From Candidatus Iainarchaeum sp. (lineage in GTDB: Archaea > Iainarchaeota > Iainarchaeia > JAGGVJ01), in the NCBI GenBank assembly GCA_021158055.1, contig JAGGVJ010000010.1, forward strand, positions 1 through 33,989: DNA of 33,989 nt, written 5' to 3'. Positions 5,833 to 33,989 of this stretch are shown piece after piece. The position numbers and the translations under genes are program-made. How positions within the stretch are numbered: position 1 is the first letter of the stretch; each line of letters opens with the position of its first letter. The notes under the pieces were generated by a model. It saw only the letters and a program-made list of their open reading frames with translations, ran no database searches and was not told where the DNA came from.

Positions 5833-7606
5833 TCACCGCCAAAACTATTGCAATAGAAGAAATTACCGTGACTGAAACAAAATGCTTCAGGACATGTTCT
5901 TCAACGCGGTCGAAAAAAAGGCTGATTTTCGCACCGGCATAACCTATTTTTTCGTAAATTCTATTCACGTCAATTAACTGCGACTTTTGCAGGCAACCTG
6001 CTCCAAAATAAAAATTCCCGGCGTCAAAATCAAGCTCCCCAAGAGGAATCTGCTCGCCGCCGGTAAAAGAGGAAACGCGTTTTGAAGACCTGTTTCTTGT
6101 AAAAAACAAATATATCAAAAATCCCGCGATAAACGAGCCCAGCAAAAGCATGTCAAGAAACAGGATATCCCACCTTCCGATGGTTGTTATTATGCTCCAC
6201 CCGACCACCTGCGGGACCATCTTTGAGGAAATGTCAAGCACGGCAGGGTTAACTATGTTATTGAGTACAAAAGGAGACAAAACACCAAGCGCAACGGTTG
6301 CAAGGGCAAGGGACACAAGCGGAAAAGTAATTTCAAACGGCACCTTGAACTTCTTTACCTTCAAAGGGTAGTTTGATAAAAAAACCGAGTTGAACATCTT
6401 CAGGTAAACCCCGAAAGCAAGCGTTATGCTTACAAAAACAAGCAGCACGTAACTCATGTTCTGGTTCAGGAGCGACTCAAGGATCATCCACTTGCTTACC
6501 GAGCCGCTGAACGGGGGAACCCCTGCAACCGCAAGCAACGCAACAATCATCGCCCCTGACACCAGAGGCAAAAATCTGGCTGCCCCACCCATTTTTGTTA
6601 TGTCCCTTGTAACAAACTTGTGGATCAAGATTCCTGCGCCGAGAAAAAGAAGGGACTTGAAAAACGCGTGGTTTAAGGTATGGAAAAGGGCAGCCGACAT
6701 TGAAAGCGGGTTAAGGGAAAATATGCTCACAAAAATTATTGAAACATTTGCTATTGTTGAATACGCCAGGATTCTTTTTATGTCTTTTTCAAAAAACGCA
6801 TAGCACATTACAATTATCGCAGAAAACGCAGCCAGGTAACCGAAAGCAAGACACATTTGCGGGAAAAATGAGATCATTGGGAAAAACCTCATCAAAAGAA
6901 ACACCCCTGCCTTGACCATTACAGCCGAGTGAAGAAGAGCCGACGCCGGTGCTGGAGCTTCCATTGCGTCAGGAAGCCAGATGTGAAACGGAAAAATCGC
7001 GGACTTTGCAAACGCGGCAACCGACAGCATGAAAACCACAAAAAAAAGTGCGTCAACAGGTATTTCAGAAACCATGTTCAGTGAATTGCGTATGCTTTGG
7101 TCAGGGACAAAAAACAACAGCACGATAAAAGCAGTCATCAAAAAAATGGAGCCAAAATGAGTTATTATAAAACACTTTTTCGCCGCAGCCACCGCGTGCG
7201 TGTCTGTGTAGTGGTACAATATCAGAAGGTAAGAGCAAATAGTTATGATCTCCCAGAACATGATAAACATAAAAAAGCTGTCTGCCATCACCATTGCGTT
7301 CATTGAACCCACAAAAGTCATGATCACCATGTAAAAACGCGCCGGGGTTTCTTTCACATACCTTGAAGAATAGACAATTACAAAAAAAGCAATCACTGAA
7401 GCTATTAACGTGAAAAATGACGAAAGGTGGTCGCGAAACAGCAGACCCGGAATCCACGCGGTTTCATTGAATGCAAGCAGGGAAACCACTGCTGTTGCAA
7501 GCGAAAAAAGTATCGCTGAAACTTTAATGTATTGTTCCGCAACTCTTTTCAGGACAGGAAAAAAAACAACTGCTGCAAACGGCAGGTAAATCAACAGTTC
7601 AAACAT
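5819..7606 (-). CDS. NuoL/MnhA/EchA-like antiporter subunit
   Basis: FWEIITICSYLLI, AKSAIFPFHIWLPDAMEAPAPASALLHSAVMVKAG, KRILAYST, HAFFKSLLFLGAG motifs. Confidence 0.92.
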   Translation of the reverse strand: MFELLIYLPFAAVVFFPVLKRVAEQYIKVSAILFSLATAVVSLLAFNETAWIPGLLFRDHLSSFFTLIASVIAFFVIVYSSRYVKETPARFYMVIMTFVGSMNAMVMADSFFMFIMFWEIITICSYLLILYHYTDTHAVAAAKKCFIITHFGSIFLMTAFIVLLFFVPDQSIRNSLNMVSEIPVDALFFVVFMLSVAAFAKSAIFPFHIWLPDAMEAPAPASALLHSAVMVKAGVFLLMRFFPMISFFPQMCLAFGYLAAFSAIIVMCYAFFEKDIKRILAYSTIANVSIIFVSIFSLNPLSMSAALFHTLNHAFFKSLLFLGAGILIHKFVTRDITKMGGAARFLPLVSGAMIVALLAVAGVPPFSGSVSKWMILESLLNQNMSYVLLVFVSITLAFGVYLKMFNSVFLSNYPLKVKKFKVPFEITFPLVSLALATVALGVLSPFVLNNIVNPAVLDISSKMVPQVVGWSIITTIGRWDILFLDMLLLGSFIAGFLIYLFFTRNRSSKRVSSFTGGEQIPLGELDFDAGNFYFGAGCLQKSQLIDVNRIYEKIGYAGAKISLFFDRVEEHVLKHFVSVTVISSIAIVLAVIVFG

Positions 7607-7694
7607 GAAAAAAAGAAGTGGAATGGATTAATTATATGTTCCTTTTAAACATAAAAACGTCATTTGAGCAGTACAAACCCATTGTTCCTGAAAC

Positions 7695-8987
7695 CTAAAG
7701 CAGGTGCTTTTTTGTTTCCTGTTGCTTTGTCCAGTTTCCTGCCCAGCCGATTTCAACAGTGTGGGCAATCTTTTCAGCCCGCCTCTTTGCTTCTTCAACC
7801 GTGTCAGCCAAAACGATTGCAACACCCATTCTCCTGTTCACGTGTGCTTCGGGTTTGCCGAAAAACCTCACGTTTGACTCGGGAAACGCGTTCATTGCAC
7901 TGTGAACATTGTTAAAATTCACATCCCAGCCACTCACAGGCGAAAGTATAGCGTGGGACGCTCCCGGCTTAAGCATCGGCACCTGGCTTACTCCGTTTTC
8001 CTCTACCGTCGGGATCGAAAGACCTGTAACTGCCCGCACATGAAGACCCATTTCAGAATAACCTGCTGCATGAGTCATCATAGTGACCATTCCTGTGTCA
8101 TGCGGTCTCGGGCTTATTTCGTTTGCGTACACTTCACCGTCTTTGCCGACAAAAAGCTCGCAGCCGAAAAGCCCGACTCCGCCAAGGCAATCAGTTATTT
8201 TCTTTGTAACCTGATAGATTTCTCTCTCAACGCTTTCGCTGACTTCCGCCATCTGCCAGCTTGAATGATAATCCCCGTCTATCTGGTAATGACCGACCGG
8301 TTTTGGAAAGCTGGTTTTCACACTGCCGTTTTCGTCCAGATGGCGAACCGCAAGCTCTGTTATCTCTATGTCAAAATCAATATGCTCTTCAACGATTATT
8401 TGGTCAGCGCTTCCCCTCGCGTTTTCAACTGCAACCCTAAATGCTTTTTCAACGTCCTGCGGTCCCTCCACAAAAAACGACCCTTGCCCGGAAGACGACT
8501 GAATCGCTTTTGTCCAGCACGGGTAGCCTATCTTCTCGCACGCGTCTTTGAGCTCGTCAAGGTTTGCTGCGTAAGCATATTTTGAGGTTTTAACTCCCGC
8601 TTCCTTCACAAACATCTCTCTTGTCCGCTCGCGGTGCATTGCAATGTGGGTTGCGCGCGCGTTGGGGATCACATTGAGCCCTTCTTTTTCAAGCTCAAAC
8701 AACACGTCAAGGTTTATCGCCTCGATTTCAGGTATTATCGCATCCGGCTTTTCCCTTGCAATTATCGATTTCAGGGCACCGCCGTCTTTCATGTTCACCG
8801 TGTATGACCTGTGCGCCACCTGCTGCCCAGGCGCGTTCTCATACCTGTCCACCGCAACGGTCTCTATTCCGAGGCGCTGGGCTTCAATGATTATTTCTTT
8901 TCCGATTTCCCCTGCTCCAAGAAGCAATATCTTGCACGCCTTGCTTGAAAGCGGTGTCGCCAACACCTCTCTTTTCAGAACAACCAT
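7695..8987 (-). CDS. purT: Formate-dependent phosphoribosylglycinamide formyltransferase
   Basis: LLLGAGEIGKE, AVDRYENAP, PEIEAI, SSSGQG, EISPRPHDTGMVT, FGKP..RRMGVA motifs. Confidence 0.95.
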   Translation of the reverse strand: MVVLKREVLATPLSSKACKILLLGAGEIGKEIIIEAQRLGIETVAVDRYENAPGQQVAHRSYTVNMKDGGALKSIIAREKPDAIIPEIEAINLDVLFELEKEGLNVIPNARATHIAMHRERTREMFVKEAGVKTSKYAYAANLDELKDACEKIGYPCWTKAIQSSSGQGSFFVEGPQDVEKAFRVAVENARGSADQIIVEEHIDFDIEITELAVRHLDENGSVKTSFPKPVGHYQIDGDYHSSWQMAEVSESVEREIYQVTKKITDCLGGVGLFGCELFVGKDGEVYANEISPRPHDTGMVTMMTHAAGYSEMGLHVRAVTGLSIPTVEENGVSQVPMLKPGASHAILSPVSGWDVNFNNVHSAMNAFPESNVRFFGKPEAHVNRRMGVAIVLADTVEEAKRRAEKIAHTVEIGWAGNWTKQQETKKHLL

Positions 8988-9086
8988 TTCTTTCCCCCCT
9001 AAACCAAATCCAATTTCCCTGTAAAAATTAGCTCAATGAATTCTTTTAATTATTTTGATTAGGCAAAAAAACTGCAAATAATAAAA

Positions 9087-10082
9087 TCAGCTTCGCCACG
9101 GGACTTCAACGGCATCTGTTCTCCAATTAGAAATAGGTTGGGATTCTTTAATGGGTGTCTGAAACCCGCTTTTCAGGGCGAGGATTCCGGTCCATGCAAT
9201 CATCGCACCGTTGTCGCCCAAAGTAAAATCAGGGGGAACCGCAAACCTGCAGCCCCGCTCTTTCGCCATCACGGAAAGCTTTTCCCGCAGTCTTTTCGAG
9301 CGCCCGACCCCTCCCGTAAGCAAAAGCTCTGTTTTGCCTGTGTGGGAAAGCGCTCTTTCCGCGGCTTCGGCAAGCATGCAAAACGCGGTTTCCTCAAGTG
9401 AAAAACACACGTCTTCAAGAGTGTTTTCTTTTTTTGCTGCTTGTTTCAGCGCTTCAGTTGCGAGTCCGCTGAACACAAAATCCATCCCTTTGACAGTGTA
9501 AGGCAATTCAATGAACCTTTTTCCTTTTTCCGCAAGCGCTGACACTTTCGGAAAACCCGGGTGTCCGAAACCAAGGTCTCTTGCAAAAGAATCAACAGCG
9601 TTTCCAAGGCCGACATCAAGGGTTTCGCCAAGCACTCTGTATTTTTTGTCTTCAAAAGATATTATCTGCGTGTTTCCGCCTGAAACATACACGACCACAG
9701 AATCAGACATTCCGCAAAGAAGGTTTGCTATTTCTATGTGCGCAACGCAATGGTTCACTCCTATCAAAGGAACATCAAGCAAAACGGAAATTGCTCTTGA
9801 AGCAACCGCTGTTGTTTCAAGGCACGGCCCCAATCCGGGCCCCTGGGAAAAAGCAACTGCATCAATACGGTTTCTTGATGCTTTTGACCCTTCAAAAAGC
9901 GAATTTAAAAGGTCTCCGAACGACGCGCTGATCATTTGCGCTGCTTCGCGCGGGTGGATTCCGCCGGTTTTTGTCGTGTACGTCTTTTTTTTCTCGCACA
10001 ATATGTTTCCTTTGTCGTCCACAAGGGAAAGCCCAAGGGTGTGCGCTGTTCCTTCAATTCCAAGGCAGATCATTTCAACCAA
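9087..10082 (-). CDS. kae1: tRNA t6A threonylcarbamoyltransferase Kae1 (stand-alone, no Bud32 fusion)
   Basis: LGIEGTAHT, GGIHPREAA, GPGLGPCL, NHCVAHIE, YVSGGNTQ, GETLD, DNGAMIAW; start may be the ATG at 10073. Confidence 0.95.
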   Translation of the reverse strand: MVEMICLGIEGTAHTLGLSLVDDKGNILCEKKKTYTTKTGGIHPREAAQMISASFGDLLNSLFEGSKASRNRIDAVAFSQGPGLGPCLETTAVASRAISVLLDVPLIGVNHCVAHIEIANLLCGMSDSVVVYVSGGNTQIISFEDKKYRVLGETLDVGLGNAVDSFARDLGFGHPGFPKVSALAEKGKRFIELPYTVKGMDFVFSGLATEALKQAAKKENTLEDVCFSLEETAFCMLAEAAERALSHTGKTELLLTGGVGRSKRLREKLSVMAKERGCRFAVPPDFTLGDNGAMIAWTGILALKSGFQTPIKESQPISNWRTDAVEVPWRS

Positions 10083-10112
10083 ACACGCTCAAAATTTAAT
10101 TAATCCATTGAA

Positions 10113-10688
10113 TTATAAAAGAATCACAGTTATCACAATTGCGTTGTATAGCATGTGGGCGACTATCGAAACAACCAAACTGTTTCTTTTCAGGTAGACG
10201 TAACCCAAAACAAACCCAAGCGCCATTGCACCCATCACTTCAAAGAAAGAGCCGTAAGTAATGTGGGCAAATGCAAATATAATTGATGCAAAAAGCAATC
10301 CGAGCCACTTTATTCCCGTCTTTTTGAACGTGGCTTCTTCAAGCTTTTTTGCCAGGAATCCCCTGAAAAAAATTTCTTCTGTGACAACGCGCACAAAAAG
10401 CACGTAAATCAAAAAGAGCGGTGAAAGTGATTTTATGGTTTCTGCCACGAGTTCCAGGTCATTTGAAACAAAAGAAGACAGCATAAGGGCAAGGATGATC
10501 TGCACAGCAAACATTGCCGGAACAGTCAAAATGCCGAAAAAAATGTTTTTAAAAAATGAGTTAAAATGAAGCCCAAGGTACTTAATGCTCTTTGAAAACG
10601 TTTTTTTGTTCACGTACATTAAGTAAGTCAGCGGAGTGAGAAAAAGAAGCAGATCCAAACTCAGGTTTGCAAAGATTTCAAAATACAT
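10113..10688 (-). CDS. CPBP (CAAX protease/Abi) family intramembrane metalloprotease
   Basis: EEIFFRG, FAFAH and H.LYN motifs in a hydrophobic protein. Confidence 0.9.
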   Translation of the reverse strand: MYFEIFANLSLDLLLFLTPLTYLMYVNKKTFSKSIKYLGLHFNSFFKNIFFGILTVPAMFAVQIILALMLSSFVSNDLELVAETIKSLSPLFLIYVLFVRVVTEEIFFRGFLAKKLEEATFKKTGIKWLGLLFASIIFAFAHITYGSFFEVMGAMALGFVLGYVYLKRNSLVVSIVAHMLYNAIVITVILL

Positions 10689-10703
10689 TGCAATTACTTC
10701 TTT

Positions 10704-10850
10704 TTACTTCTTTTCCATGTACCCACATTTTCCGCAGGAGCGCCTGTCTTTGTGTTCAGCCAAAAACACGCCTTCCCCGCATTTCGGGCACGGCTTGTTT
10801 TTTCTTGTCAACTGATTGTTTTCTATTGTATAACTGTCTTTTTTTGCCAC
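10704..10850 (-). CDS. rps27ae: 30S ribosomal protein S27ae (not in ORF track)
   Basis: Manual translation MAKKDSYTIENNQLTRKNKPCPKCGEGVFLAEHKDRRSCGKCGYMEKK; GTG start after AGGTGA; follows S24e. Confidence 0.93.
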   Translation of the reverse strand: MAKKDSYTIENNQLTRKNKPCPKCGEGVFLAEHKDRRSCGKCGYMEKK

Positions 10851-10867
10851 AAAATCACCTTTGATTC

Positions 10868-11260
10868 TTACTCTGATTTTTCTTTTGCTTCTTCCTTGGA
10901 TTCTTTTTCAGTTTCCTTTGCAGGGGCTTTTTTTGCTTCTTCTTTCGGAAGTTCTTTTGCCTGTTCTTTTGAGTCCTCTTTTGCTTCAAAAGTGTTTCTT
11001 TTTATTTTGTACTCGGGTTCTATTTCTTTCATGGATTCTTCCGAGTCATACACTTTTGCGTATCCGCTTGATTCTTTTTTTCCGCTTTCCTGTTTCACGT
11101 TGTCAACAATGACTCTTGAAGGGTCAGCGTTCTTCAAAGCAATTATTTTCTTTTTGACATCCAGCCTTTTCGGCGTTGCCGGGGAATCAACTACTGTAAA
11201 GTACACGTCTGTCCTGTGAAGAAGCGGGTTTTTCACTTCTCTTGTAATTTCAACGTTCAT
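10868..11260 (-). CDS. rps24e: 30S ribosomal protein S24e with charged tail
   Basis: NPLLHRT, ATPKR, GYAKVY motifs; GAGGTGA SD. Confidence 0.93.
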   Translation of the reverse strand: MNVEITREVKNPLLHRTDVYFTVVDSPATPKRLDVKKKIIALKNADPSRVIVDNVKQESGKKESSGYAKVYDSEESMKEIEPEYKIKRNTFEAKEDSKEQAKELPKEEAKKAPAKETEKESKEEAKEKSE

Positions 11261-11273
11261 TTTTTCACCTCAA

Positions 11274-11345
11274 TTTACTTCAACTTACCTGCTCAACAGT
11301 TTACTTCAACTTACCTGCTCAACAGTTTACTTCAACTTACCTGCT
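11274..11345 (+). repeat. 26-nt tandem repeat x2.8 filling the spt4-S24e spacer
   Basis: TTTACTTCAACTTACCTGCTCAACAG at 11274 and 11300, partial at 11326 including the spt4 stop codon. Confidence 0.93.
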
Positions 11346-11531
11346 GAGCCTGATGGCATATTTGCCTGGTATTTCAATGTTTAATTCTTTGGATATCTCT
11401 GATTTTTCAGGATCAATGATTGAAACAAACCCTCTCCAGTATTCTGTGAGGTTCGTGCTTTTGCAAACAGGGCACACATTGCTATCTGCAACAAGCCTGT
11501 GGCAGTCCTTGCAGGCCTTTATCTTGCTCAT
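11337..11531 (-). CDS. spt4: Transcription elongation factor Spt4 (RpoE2/E'')
   Basis: KACKDC..CPVC..W.G...IIDPEKSEI..PGKYA. Confidence 0.93.
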   Translation of the reverse strand: MSKIKACKDCHRLVADSNVCPVCKSTNLTEYWRGFVSIIDPEKSEISKELNIEIPGKYAIRLSR

Positions 11532-12586
11532 TTCTTTTCACCGCCTTTTGTTTTCTGTTCTTCATCTTTCTCTTCAGCAACATTTTGGATTTCAGCGGGT
11601 TCCTTTTCCTGCAGTTCAACAGGTCCCTTCACTCCCACATCAACAGATTCCACCACTTTTACTTCAGCAGATTCCTTCACTCCCACATCAGTAGACTCCT
11701 TCACTTTTACTTCAGCGGGTTCCTTCACTCCCACATCAACAGATTCCACCACTTTTACTTCAGCAGGTTCCTTCACTTCCACATCAGTAGACTCCTTCAC
11801 TTTTACTTCAGCAGATTCCTTCACTTCCACATCAGTAGACTCCTTCACTTTTACTTCAGCAGATTCCTTTTCCTGCAATTCAACAGGTTCCTTCACTTCC
11901 GCCTCGGTTGAATCCTTGGGTTTTTCCTCTGCTGTTTTTTCAGCAACTGTTTCTTCAGCAGCAGGTTCTTCAGATTCACCTTCTTTCTGCTCTTTTATTT
12001 CTGCTCTCAAGTTTACCCTGAGTTCGGAAGGAACAGATGCTGTCTTCAAAGCTGTTTTACCTGACCATTCGCTTTTGCCAAGGCACGGTTGCCTCATGGT
12101 CAAACCGATTTTGCTTTCCGAAAGCATTTTCTTTAACGAAATCGAAACTATTCTTGACTTCACAATGTCCCCCACAGCAAGCATCTTGTTTGAATCTTTT
12201 GCCACAAGCATTGTTTTTTGCGGGTCATAGCTTATGAACTCGTCCATGAGCTGTGAAACGTGAACAAGCCCTTCAATTGGACCTATCCTCACAAATGCCC
12301 CGAATTCAAGTATTTCTGAAACGCGGCCGTCAACAACTTCCTGCAGTTCAGGAAGGTAAGTAAGCGCTTCAAAAACAATGTGATAATAAGCGCTTCCGTC
12401 TCCCGGAACCACAACTCCTTCACCGATTTCCTTAACAGCATTTATGCTTAAGATAATACCGTGGTCTTCATCAAAAATCCCTTCATACCTGTTTCTCAAC
12501 AATTCAAGAGACACTTCTTTTATGTCATCGCCAAACTTTCTTGGAGGAATTCCAATCGTGTCCATCACTGAAATCAATTTATACAT
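11528..12586 (-). CDS. rpoE1: RNA polymerase subunit E' (Rpo7) with long repetitive acidic C-terminal extension
   Basis: IPPRKFG, GDGSAY, FGAFVRIGPIEGLVHVSQ, KIGLTMRQP.LGK.EW; start set at ATG 12586 behind a GAGGT SD. Confidence 0.93.
   Translation of the reverse strand: MYKLISVMDTIGIPPRKFGDDIKEVSLELLRNRYEGIFDEDHGIILSINAVKEIGEGVVVPGDGSAYYHIVFEALTYLPELQEVVDGRVSEILEFGAFVRIGPIEGLVHVSQLMDEFISYDPQKTMLVAKDSNKMLAVGDIVKSRIVSISLKKMLSESKIGLTMRQPCLGKSEWSGKTALKTASVPSELRVNLRAEIKEQKEGESEEPAAEETVAEKTAEEKPKDSTEAEVKEPVELQEKESAEVKVKESTDVEVKESAEVKVKESTDVEVKEPAEVKVVESVDVGVKEPAEVKVKESTDVGVKESAEVKVVESVDVGVKGPVELQEKEPAEIQNVAEEKDEEQKTKGGEKK
11585..11900 (+). repeat. Degenerate 24/48-nt tandem repeats encoding VKESTDVEVKESAEVK-like units in RpoE1 tail
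   Basis: Repeated TCCTTCACT..ACATCA.. / TTTACTTCAGC units; boundaries approximate. Confidence 0.85.
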
Positions 12587-12690
12587 TTGCTCGACCTCAA
12601 TTGTTTGTTTCAATTGCCTGTTAATTCAACTAATATCAAACGTTTTTTTACTGCATTTAAATTTTAGAACATTTAAACCTTTATCTTTTG

Positions 12691-13110
12691 TTATTCTATC
12701 TCAATAAACTTTTTCGAACGCAAAAAAGCACATCTTATTCCTTTTTTCCTTAATTTTGCGCGAAGCTCTTTATCATTTGTCGCTACAATCCCGTGCATTT
12801 CCAAAGCATATTGAATGATTGCGTCATCTGTGGGTCCAAAAAACATTTTCGGCCCGTCTAAGGCAACAACGTCTTCTTTTTTCATTATTTTTCTTGTAAG
12901 CTCAACTATTTTTTTGTATTTCGGAGACTTAGCTGAAATCTTTTCAAGTTCTTCCTCTACTGCACCTATTGTCACAAACCTTGTTTTTGAGGACAGTTTT
13001 TGTTTTATCTGCGTGAAAACATCAATCCCAAATTGAGCCGGCACAAGAAGCATGTTTGTGTCAAAAATCACAACCAAAGCGCCGGGTTCAGCCGACGACA
13101 CCATAACCAA
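12691..13110 (-). CDS. PIN-domain protein (archaeal Fcf1/Utp24-like)
   Basis: VIFDTN, TDDAII, VATNDKELR motifs; conserved position downstream of aIF2-gamma. Confidence 0.88.
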   Translation of the reverse strand: MVMVSSAEPGALVVIFDTNMLLVPAQFGIDVFTQIKQKLSSKTRFVTIGAVEEELEKISAKSPKYKKIVELTRKIMKKEDVVALDGPKMFFGPTDDAIIQYALEMHGIVATNDKELRAKLRKKGIRCAFLRSKKFIEIE

Positions 13111-14383
13111 TAAGCCTCCACCGGTTGTTTACTCTCTTGCTTAAGGCAACCTTGCTACCTTCTTCAACACACACAGATCTCTTTAATGCGATTTCTGCTT
13201 CATCGCCCCTGATTGACAGAATTGTTCCCACTGAAACAGCAGTTCCAACTGATACCACAAGCGGTTCGTTCACGAAAAGTTTTAGTGCGGAATCTGCCGA
13301 AACACCGACCACTCTTTTCAGCATAGTTATCTTCAGGGAAAGCTTGTCTTTGTTTTCAGGCAAAGTGCCTGGGTGCCCGAGCAAGCTGCCTATAAGATTG
13401 TCTGCTTTTGAAATGAACGGGTCAAGGGTTGTGCCTATTGCAATCAGACCTCCGGGAGACACTGATTCAAGCTGGCCTTCTCTTATCCCTAAAGTGACAA
13501 TTTTTGTGGTTATAGGTTCCCACACTTCTTTATTGCTCACGGTTTTTTTGAATCCCGGTTTTATTTCTACTTCGTCGCCTACTTTCAGTGTTCCTGAAAT
13601 AAGCGATCCGCCAATCACACTCCCAATGAGATCAATGGCTTTTTTGCCCGGCTTATTGATGTCAAACGAGCGCGCCACATACATTCTGGCGCTTTTGGAA
13701 GAATCCCTTTTCGGGTTTGGAATGTATTTTTCAACTGCTTCAATCAAGGCATCAATATTTGTTCCAAAATGAGCTGCCATCGGAATTATCGGAACGTCTT
13801 TGTAACCGAATTTGTTGAGAAATTCCCTTATTTGCTCGTGGCTTTTTTTTGCTTCTTCAACTGACACGAGATCTATCTTGTTTTGCACCACGACGATGTT
13901 TTCGACACCTGTCACGCTTAAAGCCATTAAATGTTCTTCTGTTTGCGGCTGCGGGCAGGTTTCGTTTGCAGCAACTACAAGCACTGCCCCGTCCATTAAT
14001 GCTGCTCCGGAAAGCATGGTTGCCATGAGTGTTTCGTGACCCGGAGAGTCAACAAATGACACTTTTCGAAGCATTTCTGTCTGCGTTCCGCACACAGGGC
14101 ATTTTTTTTCAATTGTGAATGCCTGGGTTCCGCTGCACTTGGGGCATTTTCTGAAAACCGAGTCAGCGTACCCGAGTTTTATTGATATTCCTCTTTTGAG
14201 TTCTTCTGAATGCTGGTCAGTCCATACTCCAGTAAGTGCTTTTGTAAGGGTTGTTTTTCCGTGGTCAACATGGCCGATCATTCCAATGTTTATCCCAGCC
14301 TGCCTCGGCTTAACATCTTCTTTTTCCGGCTTTTTCGTTTTCTTGGCAGAAACTGCCTCTTGTTTTTTTGTTTTTTCAGGCAT
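13088..14383 (-). CDS. eif2g: Translation initiation factor aIF2 gamma subunit
   Basis: GHVDHGKTT, HSEELKRGISIKLGYA, Zn knuckle, DSPGHE, QNKID, RWRLIGYG; start uncertain (14383 or 14413). Confidence 0.96.
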   Translation of the reverse strand: MPEKTKKQEAVSAKKTKKPEKEDVKPRQAGINIGMIGHVDHGKTTLTKALTGVWTDQHSEELKRGISIKLGYADSVFRKCPKCSGTQAFTIEKKCPVCGTQTEMLRKVSFVDSPGHETLMATMLSGAALMDGAVLVVAANETCPQPQTEEHLMALSVTGVENIVVVQNKIDLVSVEEAKKSHEQIREFLNKFGYKDVPIIPMAAHFGTNIDALIEAVEKYIPNPKRDSSKSARMYVARSFDINKPGKKAIDLIGSVIGGSLISGTLKVGDEVEIKPGFKKTVSNKEVWEPITTKIVTLGIREGQLESVSPGGLIAIGTTLDPFISKADNLIGSLLGHPGTLPENKDKLSLKITMLKRVVGVSADSALKLFVNEPLVVSVGTAVSVGTILSIRGDEAEIALKRSVCVEEGSKVALSKRVNNRWRLIGYGVVG

Positions 14384-14396
14384 TTTTCTCAAATCT

Positions 14397-15116
14397 TTAT
14401 TTTTTATCATCACTTATTTCTTTCTTTTCCTCTGCAGGCGCTTCATTCTTTTCCTCTGCAGGCGCTTCATTCTTTTCCTCTGCAGGCGCTTCATTCTTTT
14501 CCTCTGCAGGAACTTCTTTTGACTCCTCTTCAGCCCCTTCCTTCTTCTCTTCTACATGCACATCTTCTGCTTTCTCTTTCACTTCTTCCTTCGGAACTTC
14601 CTTTTTTTCTTCTGAAGGAACTTCTTCTTTTGGAACTTCTTTAACTTCTTCTTTTGGAACTTCTTTAACTTCTTCTTTCACTTCTTCCTTCACATCTTCT
14701 TTTGGAACTTCCTTTGCTTCCTCTTTCGGAGCCTCTTCTGTTCCTGTTATTCCGAGAAGTGACGCGATTGTTTTCTTGCCTTCTTCAACAACTTTTGTGT
14801 TGAGCTGTTCCGTATCAATTGAAACAACTTCCCCTCTCAGGCTTTTCCTGCGCCTCAAACCGTGTCTTTTCGGGTTGAAACCGACTCCGCCTGAAATAAG
14901 CACTTTTTTTCTTGCCGCACCGTGAAGGTTTTTCCTCATCGGAAATCCCTGTTTGTCCGAACCACCGGTTATCTGCAGGCTGTAACCCGGAAGCCCCACG
15001 GGGGTAGCGTCAACTTTGTCACCTATTTTCCTGTTCACAAAAGCAACTGACTTTTCACTGTCAATCTCTGTCTGGTAAGTTTTACCTTCTTTCGGGTTTC
15101 CGATAATCAATTTCAC
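14397..15116 (-). CDS. rps6e: 30S ribosomal protein S6e with long acidic repeat tail
   Basis: LQITGGSDKQGFPM and GLRRRKSLRG motifs; EEVKEVPK and EEKNEAPA repeats. Confidence 0.95.
   Translation of the reverse strand: MKLIIGNPKEGKTYQTEIDSEKSVAFVNRKIGDKVDATPVGLPGYSLQITGGSDKQGFPMRKNLHGAARKKVLISGGVGFNPKRHGLRRRKSLRGEVVSIDTEQLNTKVVEEGKKTIASLLGITGTEEAPKEEAKEVPKEDVKEEVKEEVKEVPKEEVKEVPKEEVPSEEKKEVPKEEVKEKAEDVHVEEKKEGAEEESKEVPAEEKNEAPAEEKNEAPAEEKNEAPAEEKKEISDDKK
14422..14510 (+). repeat. Perfect 24-nt tandem repeat x3.7 in S6e tail
   Basis: TTCTTTTCCTCTGCAGGCGCTTCA at 14422, 14446, 14470, partial at 14494. Confidence 0.95.
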
Positions 15117-16876
15117 TGTAAATCACCTTTTCTTTTTTTCTTTGCCTCTTCCAATAACTCAATGTCTTCAGGACTTATCAAATCCTTGAATTCAAAAAAC
15201 ATTGATTTTTCCTGCTCTGCAGGAATATAATTGTAAAGCTCGTCTCCCTCGTGTATCTGCCTGCCGACAGTCACACCGTCAATACTGACAGCAACCTGAG
15301 CGCCGACACCCGCTTCATCAACTGTTTCTTGCCTTATCTGAATGAGTTTTATTTTCCCGACCATTTTACCGTCGGGTTTAGCCAGAAAATAATTCGGTTT
15401 TATTCTTCCGGCAAGCACTTCAACGCCGACTATGGCAGGTTTGCTTGCGCGAAAAACTGTTCCCGGAATCAGCTTTATTTTGCCTGGAAGAGTAAGTTTT
15501 GAAAGCTGTTCTTCCCTTTCTTTTGCCTTTTCCTCTTTCAGCCAAACTTCATATGACTCCACTAAATTATAGACCACATCTTCTTTAAATAACTTTACAC
15601 CGCGCGCTTCTGCTTCTTTTATCACTGAATCGTCAACCGGAACATTGAATGCAAAAATAATTCCCTTATACCTATCCGACTCCATAATTGTTTCCGCTTC
15701 AAACACCTCTTTTTTAGTCACACGCCCGATATCTGCCCTTCTCAGCGACAGGCCGATATCTTTGAAAAGCACCGCGATCGCTTCAAGGCTTCCGAGAGTA
15801 TCGGCTTTGAGTATGGGACCGATTGACTGGTTGTCAACCCTGACCTCACCAACTTCTGCCTCTACTTTTTTCATGGTCTCTTTCAGGTTTTCACTGTCTG
15901 CCACGTAAACAGGCGCTCCTGCAACGGCTTCCTCAAGCCCGGGAGCTGCAATCTTCACACCCGACGCCGCGTGGACGCTTTGCATATTAAGGAATTTTTC
16001 CTTTGAATCACGTATTTCTTCAAGAGGCTTTGGCTTCAAAAGCGCTTTTACTTTCGCGGTTCCGCAACCGCTCATTGCACCAAAGACGATTGTGTCCCCT
16101 CTTTCAATCTTCCCGTTGTAAAGAATCACATCAATTGTTTTTCCAAGGCCCTTCTCTTCCTTGACCTCAAGAATCGTGCCTTCCCCTGCATCTGTTTCGT
16201 GGGCTTCAAGTTTTTCCTGCATGAATTTTTGGGAAAGCCCTGCAAGAAACATCAGCAACTCTGAAATCCCTTCCCCTGTTTTTGCGCTCACAGGGACCAC
16301 AAGAACCTCTTTTGTGAAATCGTTTACATCACAGTAAATATTTGAATTTATGCCGTGCTCGCTCAGCTTCCCGACAAGCTCATACAGCTTTGTCTCAAGA
16401 AACGCCTGCGTATCCTGTCTTTGAGCCGCTTTTGACTCTGAAAAACACGTGGTGTCCTGGGATTTCCACCCTGTCAGGACATCAACCTTGTTTGCGGCGA
16501 CTATGAAAGGCGTCTTGTGGTGCCGGAGTATTTCAAGGGCTTCAATTGTCTGCGGCTGCAGTCCCTGGTTTATGTCAACCACAAGCACCGCGATGTCTGC
16601 AACGCTTCCCCCGCGTCTCCGAAGGTTTGAAAAAGCCGCGTGACCCGGAGTGTCAATGAATAATAACCCGGGAATTTCAAGGCCGATTCCGAACGAATCC
16701 ATCAGCTTGCCGCAAATGTCTTTTATTTTCTGCAGCGGCACTTCCGTGGCGCCGACGTGCTGAGTTATCCTCCCTGCTTCCTTTTCCGCAAGCCTGCTGC
16801 TCCTGATAAAATCAAGAAGCGTTGTCTTGCCGTGGTCGACGTGACCCATTACCGTGACTATTGGCTGCCGAATCAT
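15113..16876 (-). CDS. infB: Translation initiation factor aIF5B (IF-2)
   Basis: MIRQPIVTVMGHVDHGKTT, ITQHVGA, DTPGH, NKVD, DTLGSLEA; start set to ATG 16876. Confidence 0.96.
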   Translation of the reverse strand: MIRQPIVTVMGHVDHGKTTLLDFIRSSRLAEKEAGRITQHVGATEVPLQKIKDICGKLMDSFGIGLEIPGLLFIDTPGHAAFSNLRRRGGSVADIAVLVVDINQGLQPQTIEALEILRHHKTPFIVAANKVDVLTGWKSQDTTCFSESKAAQRQDTQAFLETKLYELVGKLSEHGINSNIYCDVNDFTKEVLVVPVSAKTGEGISELLMFLAGLSQKFMQEKLEAHETDAGEGTILEVKEEKGLGKTIDVILYNGKIERGDTIVFGAMSGCGTAKVKALLKPKPLEEIRDSKEKFLNMQSVHAASGVKIAAPGLEEAVAGAPVYVADSENLKETMKKVEAEVGEVRVDNQSIGPILKADTLGSLEAIAVLFKDIGLSLRRADIGRVTKKEVFEAETIMESDRYKGIIFAFNVPVDDSVIKEAEARGVKLFKEDVVYNLVESYEVWLKEEKAKEREEQLSKLTLPGKIKLIPGTVFRASKPAIVGVEVLAGRIKPNYFLAKPDGKMVGKIKLIQIRQETVDEAGVGAQVAVSIDGVTVGRQIHEGDELYNYIPAEQEKSMFFEFKDLISPEDIELLEEAKKKRKGDLQ

Positions 16877-30110: not shown

Positions 30111-30180
30111 GCAGTGTGTCAAAGGCACCTTATTGGGTTCGAGTCCCAAAACTGCAATCAGCTTTGCAGACCGGCAAAGC
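30111..30180 (+). ncRNA. tRNA-like element copy 1 plus downstream hairpin
   Basis: GCAGT/ACTGC stem, GTGTC-AAA-GGCAC arm, TTGGG-TTCGAGT-CCCAA T arm, then GCTTTGC-AGACCG-GCAAAGC. Confidence 0.7.
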
Positions 30181-30286
30181 ACGTACTGACCCCTAAACTC
30201 GGATGAGCATAAGGGAAACACCACATTGGGGCTGCTTAATAACCAAGCAGAGGTAAATCCAACAAAAATAATGGAAGGCAATAAGA

Positions 30287-30484
30287 ATGAGCGAAGAAAT
30301 TCCAGAAAAAGAAGATGAACAATTTACATTGACAGACATAGACACGGGCGAAAGCGTAGTTTGTACTGTGCCGATGCTGTTAGGGATAGGCCCCGAAAAA
30401 AATAAGTTCGGAGCACCTAAGAAACCATTGACAAAAAAACAAAAATTAGTTTCTCTGCTGAGGAAATTAATCAAAAAAATATAA
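30287..30484 (+). CDS. Small hypothetical protein (cassette 1)
   Basis: 65 aa with GGAAGG upstream; acidic N-terminus and basic amphipathic C-terminus; lies between tRNA-like copies 1 and 2. Confidence 0.55.
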   Translation: MSEEIPEKEDEQFTLTDIDTGESVVCTVPMLLGIGPEKNKFGAPKKPLTKKQKLVSLLRKLIKKI

Positions 30485-30590
30485 ATATAGTGGATTTTCT
30501 GCTTAATGCACCTTGATTTTTGGGGCGAATAGCAGAAAATTTCATATTTTTTAGCCACCAATCAGAGAAATGTCAAAAACCAACAAAAAA

Positions 30591-30662
30591 GCAGTTGCAC
30601 AAACTGGTGCTTTTCTCAGGTTCAAACCCTGAAACTGCGATCGCTTTGCAAACCGGCAAAGC
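30591..30662 (+). ncRNA. tRNA-like element copy 2 plus downstream hairpin
   Basis: GCAGTT/AACTGC, GCAC-AAACTG-GTGC, TCAGG-TTCAAAC-CCTGA, then GCTTTGC-AAACCG-GCAAAGC. Confidence 0.75.
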
Positions 30663-30890
30663 AACTAGTCAGAATAACAGAACAGAATACAACATTATGG
30701 AAAATAACATGATTAAATTGTATTGTTTTGTTTATTTTCATTTATCAAACTGTTTACTACTATTTATTGTTTGCTTATTGTTTATTTACTAACTGTTTAT
30801 TATTTGTTTATTTTTGTTTACTAAATATTTATTACCTGCTTAATTACTTACTGCCCTGAATACACAAACCGAAAAAATGAATCTTTTTTG

Positions 30891-30905
30891 CGAAAGGTTT
30901 ATATA
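30891..30905 (+). promoter_or_regulatory. Consensus-like archaeal BRE + TATA promoter
   Basis: CGAAAGG followed by TTTATATA. Confidence 0.6.
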
Positions 30906-31334
30906 GTTTGTTTGCAATAAATATTGTATCTTTTCTATTCTCTCATTCTTCAAACATTTGTCCATGTTCACGGACACACCAACAGACATAGCAGTCTTAA
31001 AATGCTAAAAACGAGATTCAACTCGCCAAAACACTTACTCATTATCCTCACTACTCACTTACCCTACTCATTATCCTCACTACTTACTATTACACTAGTA
31101 TCACACCATTACACTTTCAATTTTTGATTTTTAAATCTTAAAAAATCACATCTGAACTAATTCTTCTTCAGATTAAAGCAGTTTTCCCTGCACACCCCTT
31201 TTTCTTAAACAATTCCTTAATGTTCACTGCAAAGAACAAAGAACTAAACGCAGTAAACATTCCATTGGTTGATCCGAAAAAACAACCATAATTCAATCAC
31301 TTCTACTTATATGATACATAACAATAAACTTCTT

Positions 31335-31523
31335 CTAAAATGAAAGGACCCCCATCATACGGAACCCACTTTTTAACTCAATTGGGTCCTTTCGCTTCCC
31401 GTCACGTTTACCCCTGGACAGGATAAAAACAAACTCTTTTTTAAAAACAATTACAGAGCACTCATCAGGCGCATTGGATAAAACGCCCAAAACTCTTTTT
31501 AGGTAAACCCGCTCTTCCTCCAT
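31335..31523 (-). CDS. Possible small hypothetical protein
   Basis: 62 aa ORF with GTGAT SD-like motif just upstream; no recognised family. Confidence 0.35.
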   Translation of the reverse strand: MEEERVYLKRVLGVLSNAPDECSVIVFKKEFVFILSRGKRDGKRKDPIELKSGFRMMGVLSF

Positions 31524-31726
31524 CCATCACGTCAGCAAATCACAAAAACGCTGATAAAAACACATACTATGTAAAAAATTATGTAGTAAAAAATTCCGGT
31601 TAACCACAATTGGAAACAAAACTAATCGGTTACAAATACCAACATAGCTGTTTAGGCGTTCCCTAACATCTTCTGAGTACCCGCTCAAACCACCAAAATT
31701 ATTTGGTGCTACATCAAATCAAACAA

Positions 31727-31818
31727 GCAACTCTGCATACACAGGGTATACTAAGCGAAAGCTTAACAGGGTTCAAATCCCGCAGTTGCAATCGCTTTAC
31801 CAAAGCAACCGGCAAAGC
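31727..31818 (+). ncRNA. tRNA-like element copy 3 plus downstream hairpin
   Basis: GCAACT/AGTTGC, ATAC-ACAGG-GTAT, TAAGC-GAAA-GCTTA, GGG-TTCAAAT-CCC, then GCTTTACC..GGCAAAGC. Confidence 0.75.
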
Positions 31819-31843
31819 AACAAAAACATGGGAGTGGAACAAC

Positions 31844-32161
31844 ATGCACAACAACACAACACCAGAAAACAAAGAACTTCAAAAGGCGGAAAAAACGCCA
31901 AGAGAGACATATAAGGCATGGCAAAAATGGCAAAAGTACTTTAAGGAAAAACTGTACAGGCAACCCGCATCGTCACACGAAGACTATTACAATCTGGCGA
32001 TACTTACTGCAAGGTCACCGCAACAGGCGATTGCAATGATCAGGAAAGCGCAGAGGATTGATCCAAGTAGTATGGGAATCGACCTCGCAGAGGATTTCAG
32101 GTTGCTGTACAATAGGACGGAACACGACTATGAAAGGCAACACATCTCTGCTTTACGGTAG
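31844..32161 (+). CDS. Small hypothetical protein with one TPR-like motif
   Basis: ATG 31844 behind GGAGTG; YYNLAIL..AIAMIRKAQRIDP resembles a TPR repeat. Confidence 0.65.
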   Translation: MHNNTTPENKELQKAEKTPRETYKAWQKWQKYFKEKLYRQPASSHEDYYNLAILTARSPQQAIAMIRKAQRIDPSSMGIDLAEDFRLLYNRTEHDYERQHISALR

Positions 32162-32166
32162 TGAAT

Positions 32167-32186
32167 TGGCTTCTTTTTTTACGCCA
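32167..32186 (+). terminator. Repeated U-loop stem-loop after stop codon (copy A)
   Basis: TGGC-TTCTTTTTTTAC-GCCA, 5 nt after the stop. Confidence 0.6.
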
Positions 32187-32208
32187 CCCGCCCCCGTGAA
32201 ACACAGCA

Positions 32209-32297
32209 GTGGCAAGAAACGCAATTACTGCGTTGTCTTAGCGAGCATCAAAACCGCAGCCGCCAATTACTTTGCCAAAAAAACCAAGGCAAGGTAA
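32209..32297 (+). ncRNA. Degenerate tRNA-like element copy 4 plus downstream hairpin
   Basis: GTGGC/GCCGC stem, AACGCA-ATTAC-TGCGTT arm, ATCAAAACCGC T-arm remnant, then TTACTTTGCC..GGCAAGGTAA. Confidence 0.55.
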
Positions 32298-32337
32298 AAA
32301 AAGCATATTAGAGATAAAAACAAAGGAGTTGAAAACT

Positions 32338-32943
32338 ATGAAATTAATAACATTCGTGGTGCTTGGCATGATCATCATGATAAGTGTAGTCAGCGTAGGA
32401 GCTTACGCGTTTGTAAAATCCGCTGACTTTGGATACATCTCCGGAACCACCGAAGACTACTCTGTGGCTAAAGAGGATTTTCGACTGGAAGTCAATGGTG
32501 AAATCGCCACCATCCAGGACGGCAAACTTGCCTCACCCGGAGATACATTTGTAGTTCCCATCAAGGGAAAGTACAAGACAAGCGGAACGGTCAAAATCAC
32601 CAACACCGAAAATAACAAAGGGATTATCATATATAATCTCGGAGTTGGCACAGGTGATTATGCTAAAGCCAGCACCAAGTGGTCATTTAACAGGAATAGT
32701 GGGTGGTTTTCGTGGAGATCACCTGATTCCCTAATATTTGGGAAGGGAACTGGACTACATGTGTTAAGCGGAAGCCCGGAGATGAACGCAGCTCTTGAGT
32801 CAATCAGGGTCGGAGATGAAATCGTGATAAGCGGCTATGACGGAGAAAAAATAATTCTCTACGAAAACGGGAAAAAGCTCACGCGTGGCCTCAAAGGATG
32901 CCATTACGTAGTGGTCACAGACCTGAAAATAAAGAAAAAATAA
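32338..32943 (+). CDS. Hypothetical secreted/membrane-anchored protein
   Basis: ATG 32338 behind AAGGAG; N-terminal hydrophobic segment; IRVGDEIVISG suggests an OB-like strand. Confidence 0.75.
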   Translation: MKLITFVVLGMIIMISVVSVGAYAFVKSADFGYISGTTEDYSVAKEDFRLEVNGEIATIQDGKLASPGDTFVVPIKGKYKTSGTVKITNTENNKGIIIYNLGVGTGDYAKASTKWSFNRNSGWFSWRSPDSLIFGKGTGLHVLSGSPEMNAALESIRVGDEIVISGYDGEKIILYENGKKLTRGLKGCHYVVVTDLKIKKK

Positions 32944-32949
32944 AATTCA

Positions 32950-32973
32950 GTCGGCTTCTTTTTTTACGCCGAC
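32950..32973 (+). terminator. Repeated U-loop stem-loop after stop codon (copy B)
   Basis: GTCGGC-TTCTTTTTTTAC-GCCGAC. Confidence 0.6.
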
Positions 32974-32992
32974 CTATTTCTTTGCAGGAGTA

Positions 32993-33091
32993 GCATCTGA
33001 GCGCTGGACGGAGCGCAGGCACTGAAAAAAGTGTTCAACCGGCTCAAAACCGGCAGTTGCCATAGCTTTGCCAAAAAAGCAACGGCAAAGT
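32993..33091 (+). ncRNA. tRNA-like element copy 5 (cloverleaf-like) plus downstream hairpin
   Basis: GCATCTG/CAGTTGC (one T-T), GCGCT-GGACGG-AGCGC, GCACT-GAAAAA-AGTGT, CCGG-CTCAAAA-CCGG, then GCTTTGCC..GGCAAAGT. Confidence 0.72.
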
Positions 33092-33113
33092 GAACAACCA
33101 GGAGTGAAACAAC

Positions 33114-33545
33114 ATGCACAACACAACACAAGAAACCGAAGAACTTCAACAAATCGAAATGGAACTCTTTGGAACAACCCAAAGAACCGAACGATTCATA
33201 GAAGAAACCGCAGCATCCAACAGCAAGAGCACAACAGGCACCCTGACAGCGGAAAACATACTTTCCTTCCTCAGAACCAAGGATACCGCAACATTGTTCA
33301 AAACACTAAGATCAGTGTCGTCACCAGGATGTATGTGCGACACCCCTAAGTTAACAGAACAACTATGCAAAGCAATCACTTTGAGATTGTTCAACGGCAA
33401 CCCGAGGATTTCCGAAAGCATGACAAACATGCTCATAATCGGAAAACACAGGTACGCATGGTCATTCACTGAACTTGTGAACGTTTTCAAGTTCAACGAA
33501 GAATGCATCAGCCTGATTGAACGCACTGCACAGCAAACCACCTAA
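33114..33545 (+). CDS. Hypothetical protein
   Basis: ATG behind GGAGTG; N-terminus shared with the 31844 ORF; no recognised family. Confidence 0.65.
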   Translation: MHNTTQETEELQQIEMELFGTTQRTERFIEETAASNSKSTTGTLTAENILSFLRTKDTATLFKTLRSVSSPGCMCDTPKLTEQLCKAITLRLFNGNPRISESMTNMLIIGKHRYAWSFTELVNVFKFNEECISLIERTAQQTT

Positions 33546-33553
33546 AGCATTGA

Positions 33554-33588
33554 CAGTAAATTGGCTTCTTTTTTTACGCCACTTACTG
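33554..33588 (+). terminator. Repeated U-loop stem-loop after stop codon (copy C)
   Basis: CAGTAA..TGGC-TTCTTTTTTTAC-GCCA..TTACTG. Confidence 0.6.
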
Positions 33589-33627
33589 CCGTGATTAACA
33601 AATCACAAATAAGGAATCACTTCCTTA

Positions 33628-33715
33628 GCAGTTGAACACGCACACCGGGTGCAACTAACTCCTCGGGTTCAAATCCCGCAACTGCAATCGCTTTGTCAAA
33701 AGCAACCGGCAAAGT
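33628..33715 (+). ncRNA. tRNA-like element copy 6 plus downstream hairpin
   Basis: GCAGTTG/CAACTGC, GCAC-ACCGG-GTGC, CGGG-TTCAAAT-CCCG, then GCTTTGTC..GGCAAAGT. Confidence 0.78.
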
Positions 33716-33811
33716 AAGAACAAGCAGGACAAGATACTGCTTGTAACACCTCAACTGCTCCAGCGAAAGCGGGAAGCGTTGAGTAGAACAACCTATAAGG
33801 AGAGAAACAAT

Positions 33812-33989
33812 ATGCCAGAAGGCAACACAAATGGAACGTCAGAAAATGACGAACACAGAACCCCTAGAAACTGGAAGAGAATAGGGAAAATAGGCACCGG
33901 ACTAGTAACAATAATTGCAGTCCTTGCCTTAATATCGTGGCTAAGAGATCCAATCCTAAGCTGGATAACAAACCACTGGCTGGTGACAG
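33812..33989 (+). CDS. Hypothetical membrane protein, truncated by window end (not in ORF track)
   Basis: AAGGAG SD, then MPEGNTNGTSENDEHRTPRNWKRIGKIGTGLVTIIAVLALISWLRDPILSWITNHWLVT, open to the end. Confidence 0.6.
   Translation, partial: MPEGNTNGTSENDEHRTPRNWKRIGKIGTGLVTIIAVLALISWLRDPILSWITNHWLVT

Follow-up and report, generated by a model that had tools for sequence, protein, structure and literature searches.

Mini-tRNA elements ahead of genes in an archaeal genomic island: a multi-copy family of candidate RNA-processing signals with an 11-nucleotide 3' strand

tRNA-like elements at RNA ends

Ojala, in 1981, reportedly described the transfer RNA (tRNA) punctuation of mitochondrial polycistronic transcripts, in which tRNA-shaped units between genes define RNA ends; t-elements are said to have been reported in plant mitochondria by Hanic-Joyce in 1990, and upstream of the 5S ribosomal RNA (rRNA) of Haloferax volcanii by Holzle et al. 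in 2008 and 2012. Other non-decoding tRNA mimics recognised by tRNA-processing enzymes are the mascRNA-type 3'-end signals of MALAT1 and MEN-beta and the tRNA-like domain of tmRNA, which occur as single copies in eukaryotes or bacteria and function either at a 3' end or in rescuing ribosomes. Here a family of small tRNA-like elements, called mini-tRNAs, is described from Candidatus Iainarchaeum sp. The stretch analysed (the window) is the entire 33,989-nucleotide contig JAGGVJ010000010.1, or C20, of an archaeal assembly of 1.15 Mb that is 95% complete (GCA_021158055.1), and its units, five clear and one degenerate, lie on the plus strand between positions 30111 and 33686. Whereas the units of mitochondrial punctuation are working tRNAs, these elements cannot decode, and the units that they head are apparently separated by T-run terminator-like hairpins. 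An earlier note on the window had interpreted the elements as selected tRNA mimics, perhaps kept out of translation by a short helix; the mimic fold under selection is borne out below, but 11 as a selected length is not, and the likeness to tRNA-Gly proves weak evidence.

The t-elements of plant mitochondria, as described by Forner et al. (2007; PMC1920247), are likewise non-canonical tRNA-like folds with a GGTTCRANYCC arm beside protein genes; with this conserved pseudouridine arm they direct RNase Z and RNase P cuts at the ends of messenger RNAs (mRNAs), with which their own ends coincide. The elements in that account are scattered, unrelated, single and organellar, whereas the archaeal family has at least 13 copies, a fixed linker and hairpin, one element per gene or operon and a stack of 11 base pairs (bp). 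The H. volcanii t-element is an archaeal tRNA-like processing signal: it is cut by tRNase Z upstream of 5S rRNA (PMC4326828), and t-elements are reported to be processed in vivo by both tRNase Z and RNase P (PMC4326828, PMC4946936). In those accounts, however, it is a single element placed before rRNA and re-used in engineered constructs, not a multi-copy one before protein genes. In the micro-pre-tRNA and minihelix substrates of tRNase ZL reviewed in PMC9141469, which are comparable to the present elements, an acceptor and T-arm stack suffices for cleavage, its length setting the cut; those substrates are artificial and belong to the mammalian long-form enzyme, while the archaeal elements are natural and carry an extra GG hairpin. 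The literature searched yielded no account of an archaeal family whose multiple copies, each placed at one gene or operon, combine an 11-bp stack with a fused hairpin.

Extent of the family and fold of its members

A covariance model built from eight copies was used to search the whole genome. It finds 13 copies, six in the window and seven on a second contig, C23 (4843-17009); the 12 clear copies have E-values of 1e-7 to 3e-23, and copy 4 has one of 1e-3. All 13 are on the plus strand of their own contig, making up one island across two contigs, and none is elsewhere in the genome; at least two further copies lie outside the assembly in Logan contigs of the source metagenome, one of them approximately 930 nucleotides (nt) upstream of the start of C23. 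ARAGORN made tRNA-Gly its sole call in the window and detected no mini-tRNA copy, and Rfam gave no match to the copies at the gathering score or at E<=5. A home-made descriptor scan for other elements with an 11-nt strand returned 62 matches, including shifted real tRNAs, and no new copy; it was too permissive.

In its minimum-energy fold each unit consists of an acceptor helix, one or two internal hairpins and a T arm (Table 1). The anticodon arm of the canonical tRNA (Rfam RF00005) is absent, a linker or unrelated hairpins standing in its place, as is the canonical 7-bp acceptor and 5-bp T stem with its 12-nt 3' strand. What is found is the t-element arrangement, a non-canonical tRNA-like fold with a GGTTCRANYCC arm and an acceptor helix. 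Copy 2 stacks a 6-bp acceptor on a 5-bp T stem, and copy 6 a 7-bp acceptor (GCAGTTG/CAACTGC) on a 4-bp T stem, each a continuous 11 bp; the hairpin loop of copy 6 is ACCGG. Copy 1 has a 5-bp T stem and five of six acceptor pairs. Copy 3, with its compensated acceptor GCAACT/AGTTGC, has two internal hairpins, the second with a GAAA loop, and a T stem of 3 bp. In copy 5 the acceptor (GCATCTG/CAGTTGC) has one T.T mismatch, a GG-in-loop hairpin is followed by an A6-loop hairpin, and the T arm has the stem CCGG/CCGG and the loop CTCAAAA. Copy 4 is degenerate: a 5-bp acceptor-like helix (32209-32213 / 32259-32263) encloses a long internal hairpin, the T-arm consensus is gone, and the 3' strand is one base short when aligned with copy 5.

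The stem swaps claimed in the earlier note are present. Acceptor-like stems exchange compensatorily between copies 2 and 6 (GCAGTT/AACTGC) and copy 3, at the positions listed in Table 1, and the T stems differ in sequence yet pair (TTGGG/CCCAA, TCAGG/CCTGA, CCGG/CCGG and CGGG/CCCG, with GGG/CCC only in copy 3).

Pairing and covariation

The counts that follow concern paralogs within one genome, which are not independent samples of evolution. In an alignment made with the covariance model, 92.1% of 227 cells pair, compared with 27-44% when the partners are slid; six pairs show double changes, and covariation is 0.184 against 0.115±0.013 in shuffled alignments, a value that none of 500 shuffles reaches. 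An anchored table was also made of the 11 acceptor and T-stem pairs of the 12 clear copies, in which the T stem and the 3' strand need no alignment. Here 90.2% of cells pair, compensatory double changes occur in five of the 11 pairs, and covariation is 0.22 versus 0.11±0.02 after shuffling (0 of 2000 shuffles reach it). The compensatory changes correspond to about seven separate events: one at acceptor pair 4 in copy 3; one at acceptor pair 5 shared by copies 3 and 5; another at pair 5 in the copy at C23:6520, with a T.G intermediate in that at C23:7602 (a T-A, T.G, C-G series); changes at acceptor pair 7 and at T-stem pair 50-64, both in copy 1; and changes at T-stem pair 51-63 in copy 2 and, separately, in copy 5.

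This pattern argues that the copies are mimics under selection, and not decayed tRNAs or remnants of attachment sites. The claim to that effect holds up, in that the acceptor/T fold is compensated while the middle drifts, and no tRNA of the genome has this acceptor stem. An origin as the integrase attachment-site remnant of a tRNA gene was considered separately and rejected: such a stem occurs in none of 39 tRNAs, and the 5' strand is present and co-varies. Selection had originally been argued from covariation and the fixed 11-nt strand together; the covariation carries the argument for the fold, but the constant 11 alone shows no selection of 11 over 12.

The 11-nucleotide strand

Counted from the first base past the 7-nt T loop through the last base of the helix, the 3' strand is 11 nt long in all 12 clear copies (5/5 in the window, as previously stated, and 7/7 on C23). 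The same strand has 12 nt in 36 of the 39 tRNAs called by ARAGORN in this genome, including the tRNA-Gly of the window, and the other three also have 12 once the ARAGORN start is shifted by one base. Alignment to a second search model, R2, likewise required one inserted base in this strand for most real tRNAs from other genomes. Insertions and deletions are frequent elsewhere in the elements, where the middle varies from 15 to 38 nt, the loop of the downstream hairpin from 5 to 18 nt, and the linker of copy 1 has one extra base; the 18-nt block formed by the T loop and the 11-nt strand is free of them except in degenerate copy 4. In copies 1 and 2 the partner of the strand's fifth base is on the T-stem side (5+6), and in the others it is the seventh base of the 5' strand (4+7), so the division point moves while the total of 11 stays.

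A constant 11 is, however, what would be expected from an 11-nt founder with maintained pairing, and it could be an inherited founder trait; the number 11 itself is therefore not shown to be selected. The elements could also be read in another register, since an A precedes G1 in 9/12 copies and an A follows the variable base N, itself next to the helix, in 12/12. The stack would then have 12 positions, the terminal one unpaired, with A as discriminator; pairing at this terminal position is possible in only 2/12.

T arm, conservation profile and the downstream hairpin

The sequence GGTTCRANYCC is present in 11/12 clear copies and the G53-C61 pair in 12/12; the tRNA T-arm consensus (G53, T54 T55 C56 R57 A58, C61) is likewise complete in 11/12, copy 5 having C54. 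In 11/12 copies, all but the one at C23:8375, the first hairpin loop has a GG within it or at its 3' edge. The GG had been placed in or at a D-like loop in all five clear window copies, and it is present in each; in copies 1 and 3, however, the minimum-energy fold puts it on the 3' side of the stem. Retention of a D/T elbow is plausible from the GG and the T-arm consensus. The anticodon-arm position is free, as had been supposed, with a bare linker in copies 1, 2 and 6, an AGC-GAAA-GCU hairpin in copy 3 and the A6-loop hairpin in copy 5. Identity among the window copies is 0.31-0.36 in this middle region, 0.65-0.74 in the T arm and 3' acceptor strand and about 0.30 in the flanks. For all copies, mean pairwise identity is 0.31-0.32 in the flanks, 0.38-0.46 in the middle and 0.79-0.84 in the T arm and 3' strand; it falls to 0.41 at base N and then rises to 0.94 in the ATC linker and 0.89 in the 5' arm of the hairpin downstream.

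The earlier note had also likened the ends of the elements to those of tRNA-Gly, with a mostly A discriminator. The first three pairs (G-C, C-G, A-U) are indeed those of a tRNA-Gly(UCC) on contig C27, but the likeness is weak evidence: the discriminator-like base is A in just 3/5 window copies and 7/12 overall, and is as variable as the flanks. This unconstrained base argues against a conserved synthetase identity set.

Fused to each copy are a fixed linker, ATC, and a hairpin with the arms GCTTTGC/GCAAAGC. N is variable between the conserved T arm and 3' strand on one side and the conserved ATC and hairpin on the other, and the downstream hairpin belongs to the unit. As with t-elements, a gene adjoins: 10/13 copies have an ATG start of an open reading frame (ORF) 16-104 nt past the hairpin. 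The distance from hairpin end to a GGAG-type ribosome-binding site and start codon is 16-51 nt in 8/13 copies and 94-104 nt in two more, while 3/13 have no clear ATG start within the 16-104 nt range. One C23 copy heads an 8-gene operon (8501-15852). No T-run was found directly after the units, which are therefore not stand-alone genes; the genes upstream of the units terminate in T-run hairpins.

Several copies have a second leader hairpin, ACAGC...GCTGT, after the first (C23 approximately 6283-6300, 6629-6646, 7694-7712 and 16105-16123); its window form, CTGCTT/AAGCAG, is at 30234-30254 and 33722-33745, and copy 6 has an additional long GAAA-loop hairpin ahead of the start codon. In related small archaea of the class, real tRNA genes are often trailed by a U-run/A-run hairpin (GCYUUUU...AAAARGC) 2-5 nt past the discriminator (L040 707-798, L042-L044), and the module of mini-tRNA and hairpin may descend from a tRNA gene with such a trailer.

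Search for relatives

The model R1 gave no match in 100 genomes of the same class, none of them of the same family or order. The model R2 gave weak matches at E<=0.1 in 56 of 150 genomes of the class, and none of the nine best loci is a member of the family: four overlap ARAGORN tRNAs, three resemble the 3' portion of a tRNA and have a 12-nt strand (one is partly masked with N), and two are apparent coding sequence without a T arm. Exact-pattern scans found nothing in the genome contig collection or in the viral contig collection; 17 exact-pattern stretches in metagenome contigs do not score as members, the best reaching 17 bits within coding sequence. A blastn search with copy 6 against phages and plasmids gave no match. 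Searches with proteins of the island led to no relatives either: a 325-amino-acid (aa) protein was not found in 214 other genomes of the class or in IMG/VR, a 304-aa protein returned only itself and a fragment, with nothing in IMG/VR, and the loci of four homologs of a 201-aa protein were not found among genome contigs or viral contigs.

Possible functions

The conserved parts of the unit are those read by tRNA end-processing enzymes, and the unit is therefore read here as a putative processing signal with an end-protecting hairpin. The favoured reading, to which a probability of about 0.5 is given, is that the elements are t-element-like processing signals in operon leaders, at which tRNase Z and RNase P would cut so that the mRNA is left with a hairpin cap. 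The mini-tRNA, ATC and hairpin would be transcribed as the 5' leader of co-directional island genes or operons, and tRNase Z, plus RNase P where a 5' leader exists, would recognise the acceptor/T-arm stack and elbow and excise the mini-tRNA. With a stack of 11 bp instead of 12, enzymes measuring from the T loop would cut one position further out, within ATC; the 3' cut would fall after the A or T of this linker, and the mRNA would start 1-2 nt ahead of the conserved hairpin and have its new 5' end protected by it. The genome encodes RNase P RNA, tRNase Z (C27:19749-20642) and an archaeal CCA-adding enzyme. According to a review of mammalian tRNase ZL, substrates without D and anticodon arms are cleaved no less well than a full precursor tRNA, stacks of N<12 pairs are cut 12-N and 13-N nt past the discriminator, and trailers beginning with A or G are favoured (PMC9141469); eukaryal-type RNase P is described as gauging acceptor plus T length (PMC4797305).

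Several points weigh against this reading. The cut-site rule derives from mammalian tRNase ZL and not from an archaeal short-form enzyme, and tRNase Z might be impeded by a trailer that is structured 4 nt from the cut. No ORF lies within approximately 300 nt downstream of copy 2, and copy 4 has lost its T arm and kept its place. The T-run hairpins between units suggest separate transcription units and not one punctuated polycistron. In 120 core cells there are 2 G.U versus 5 A.C pairs, so that wobble gives no strand signal and does not favour the plus strand; the RNA strand is assigned solely by the sense in which the T-loop motif reads and by gene orientation. Finally, all of the evidence comes from paralogs of a single genome, with no relative found elsewhere.

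A stronger version, in which the 11-bp stack is the adaptive ruler of a self-contained RNA punctuation code on an accessory and possibly mobile island, is doubtful. The stack would then not only shift the cuts into ATC, to give mRNAs starting 1-2 nt before the hairpin, but the wrong-length helix would also bar the excised mini-tRNA from CCA maturation, charging and elongation-factor binding. The literature searched gave no account of such a gene-by-gene system of dedicated mimics in archaea.

It is unlikely, though not to be neglected, that the leader stays uncleaved and acts in cis, its tRNA-shaped 5' domain remaining on the mRNA, where it would either stabilise the transcript in the manner of a cap or recruit a protein that binds tRNA; a translation factor, a modification enzyme and the divergent uS3/KH protein encoded by the island are examples of such a protein. 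The structural conservation and the placement ahead of ORFs apply equally to such a leader, transcripts could start at or near the 5' end of the element given an A/T-rich run approximately 25-35 nt upstream of copies 4 and 5, and the island does encode a second uS3-like KH protein. This reading leaves unexplained why the features conserved are those of tRNA-end enzymes (the stack, the T loop and the free discriminator-like base); the fixed ATC and adjoining hairpin suit a cut site better, and the binding partner is only hypothetical.

Somewhat less likely again, and in line with the mimic idea of the earlier note, the mini-tRNAs could be released as trans-acting small RNAs. Their targets as decoys or competitors would be nucleases that attack tRNA, modification enzymes, the CCA-adding enzyme or a synthetase, and the 11-bp helix would keep the mini-tRNAs off the ribosome. 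Their elbow-like features, a helix length unlike that of every real tRNA of the genome and the three terminal pairs shared with tRNA-Gly(UCC) would suit such a role, but the discriminator-like base is unconstrained, the internal sequences diverge so widely that there is no shared trans-acting surface beyond the T arm, and the elements have no terminator of their own. Moreover, a decoy would not need the linkage seen here, in which a hairpin follows every copy and a gene follows most of them.

That the inverted repeats matter as DNA, either as integron-like recombination sites at cassette boundaries or as a promoter or operator, ranks lower still and is improbable. The elements do lie between gene cassettes of an accessory, repeat-rich island, the wobble counts single out no RNA strand, and the C23 copies have a T-rich stretch approximately 23 nt upstream of ATC. 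This stretch is missing, however, from the five clear window copies; the loop between the repeats is an exact tRNA-sense T-loop consensus, which a DNA site does not need; the hairpin loop of 5-18 nt is unlike a dimeric protein site; and some units are 8-gene operons. Integron attC core sites are ordered R''...R'. No integron-type tyrosine recombinase adjoins the elements: the genome has a single PF00589 match, on another contig (C21), and there is none among the scanned island ORFs, in an assembly that is gapped. Very improbable, lastly, are functionless relics, whether tRNA genes that have decayed or fragments of attachment sites that integrations left behind, with segmental duplication having multiplied them: copy 4 has decayed and copies 3 and 5 precede paralogous ORFs, a sign that some copies spread by duplication, but both acceptor strands are present and co-vary, a conserved core stands in unrelated flanks, no genomic tRNA has the stem, and the T arm is at consensus in 11/12.

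Archaeal mRNA end formation and stability are poorly known. If the processing-signal reading is true, this archaeon or its mobile element would use tRNA-processing enzymes as general mRNA-maturation machinery, by means of a compact and portable module of mini-tRNA, 3-nt linker and hairpin. With the natural 11-bp variant, substrate measurement by the RNase P, tRNase Z and CCA-adding enzyme of archaea could readily be tested, and archaeal genetics could employ the module for insulation or processing, much as it already employs the Haloferax t-element. If the elements instead work in trans or without being cut, they would constitute a new class of tRNA mimic in archaea.

Genomic context

DNA of the window has been found in hydrothermal-vent metagenomes. 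Up to approximately 29.7 kb the window contains ordinary genes, such as those for HMG-CoA reductase and a class I Glu/Gln-type tRNA synthetase; from there onward it contains small ORFs without family matches, all on the plus strand, and C23:1-18.4 kb resembles this end in being the same kind of small-ORF block. The ORFs behind copies 3 and 5 have a similar 5' region and N-terminus, and these two copies have the same 3' acceptor strand, CAGTTGC, so that element and gene were duplicated together at least once. The 201-aa protein behind copy 4 has four database homologs with 28-47% identity, conserved NGE.A.I and GDYAK motifs, and no Pfam match.

Table 1. Positions of the mini-tRNA units, neighbouring hairpins and ORFs (window coordinates unless a contig is named).
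Feature	Position	Strand	Details
Copy 1 mini-tRNA	30111..30155 (free base N 30156)	+	fold; covariance model 41-58 bits
Copy 1 parts	5' strand from 30111; hairpin 30116-30128; T stem/loop 30133-30149; 3' strand 30145-30155	+	fold
Copy 1 linker ATCA + hairpin	30157..30180	+	fold; GCTTTGC 30161-30167 / GCAAAGC 30174-30180
ORF, 65 aa	30287..30484	+	after copy 1
Copy 2 mini-tRNA	30591..30638 (N 30639)	+	T loop 30621-30627; 3' strand 30628-30638
Copy 2 linker ATC + hairpin GCTTTGC/GCAAAGC	30640..30662 (hairpin 30643-30662)	+	fold
Copy 3 mini-tRNA	31727..31789 (N 31790)	+	3' strand 31779-31789
Copy 3 linker ATC + hairpin	31791..31818 (hairpin 31794-31818)	+	ORF start 31844
ORF, 105 aa	31844..32161	+	23 nt past copy-3 hairpin; GGAG ribosome-binding site
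T7-loop terminator-like hairpin TGGC-[TTCTTTTTTTAC]-GCCA	32167..32186	+	after stop of ORF preceding copy 4
Copy 4, degenerate	32209..32263	+	covariance model 23 bits, E 1e-3; model R2 43 bits
Copy 4 downstream hairpin, core CTTTGCC/GGCAAGG	32267..32297	+	ORF start 32338
ORF, 201 aa	32338..32943	+	after copy 4; hydrophobic N-terminus
T7-loop hairpin, compensated stem CGGC/GCCG	32952..32971	+	before copy 5
Copy 5 mini-tRNA	32993..33060 (N 33061)	+	3' strand 33050-33060
Copy 5 linker ATA + hairpin	33062..33091 (hairpin 33065-33091)	+	ORF start 33114
ORF, 143 aa	33114..33545	+	20 nt past copy-5 hairpin
T7-loop hairpin	33562..33581	+	before copy 6
Copy 6 mini-tRNA	33628..33685 (N 33686)	+	3' strand 33675-33685; covariance model 93 bits
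Copy 6 linker ATC + hairpin	33687..33715 (hairpin 33690-33715)	+	two further leader hairpins, then ORF start 33812
ORF after copy 6	33812..33989	+	runs off contig into ~3-fold depth repeat
T7-loop hairpin	C23 8287-8306		before a mini-tRNA

Hairpins with a T7 loop number four in the genome, all in the island, and have a conserved loop, TTCTTTTTT(T/A)AC, on co-varying stems of 4-6 bp. Each sits just past an ORF stop and ahead of a mini-tRNA, a position from which it may be a terminator. At copies 4 and 5 the hairpin is approximately 25-35 nt ahead of the element, where a TATA-like box would sit. By eye, no consistent TATA-like box was seen at a fixed distance upstream of the elements, and the real tRNA genes of the genome give no clear promoter model.

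The terminus of C20 is a repeat at approximately 3-fold depth, as judged from Logan contigs of the source metagenome. The stretch 33863-33989 and beyond has this depth, and a variant leader copy precedes the last ORF. Within the island, C23 1080-1742 is the second, divergent ribosomal protein uS3-like gene (KH_2 + Ribosomal_S3_C). The approximately 1 kb after copy 2 (30666-31726) is without a convincing ORF and could be a non-coding RNA or an origin-like region; it contains five copies of T-rich direct repeats (TGTTTATT-like) at 30717-30833 and a 24-nt direct repeat at 31036-31059 and 31065-31088.

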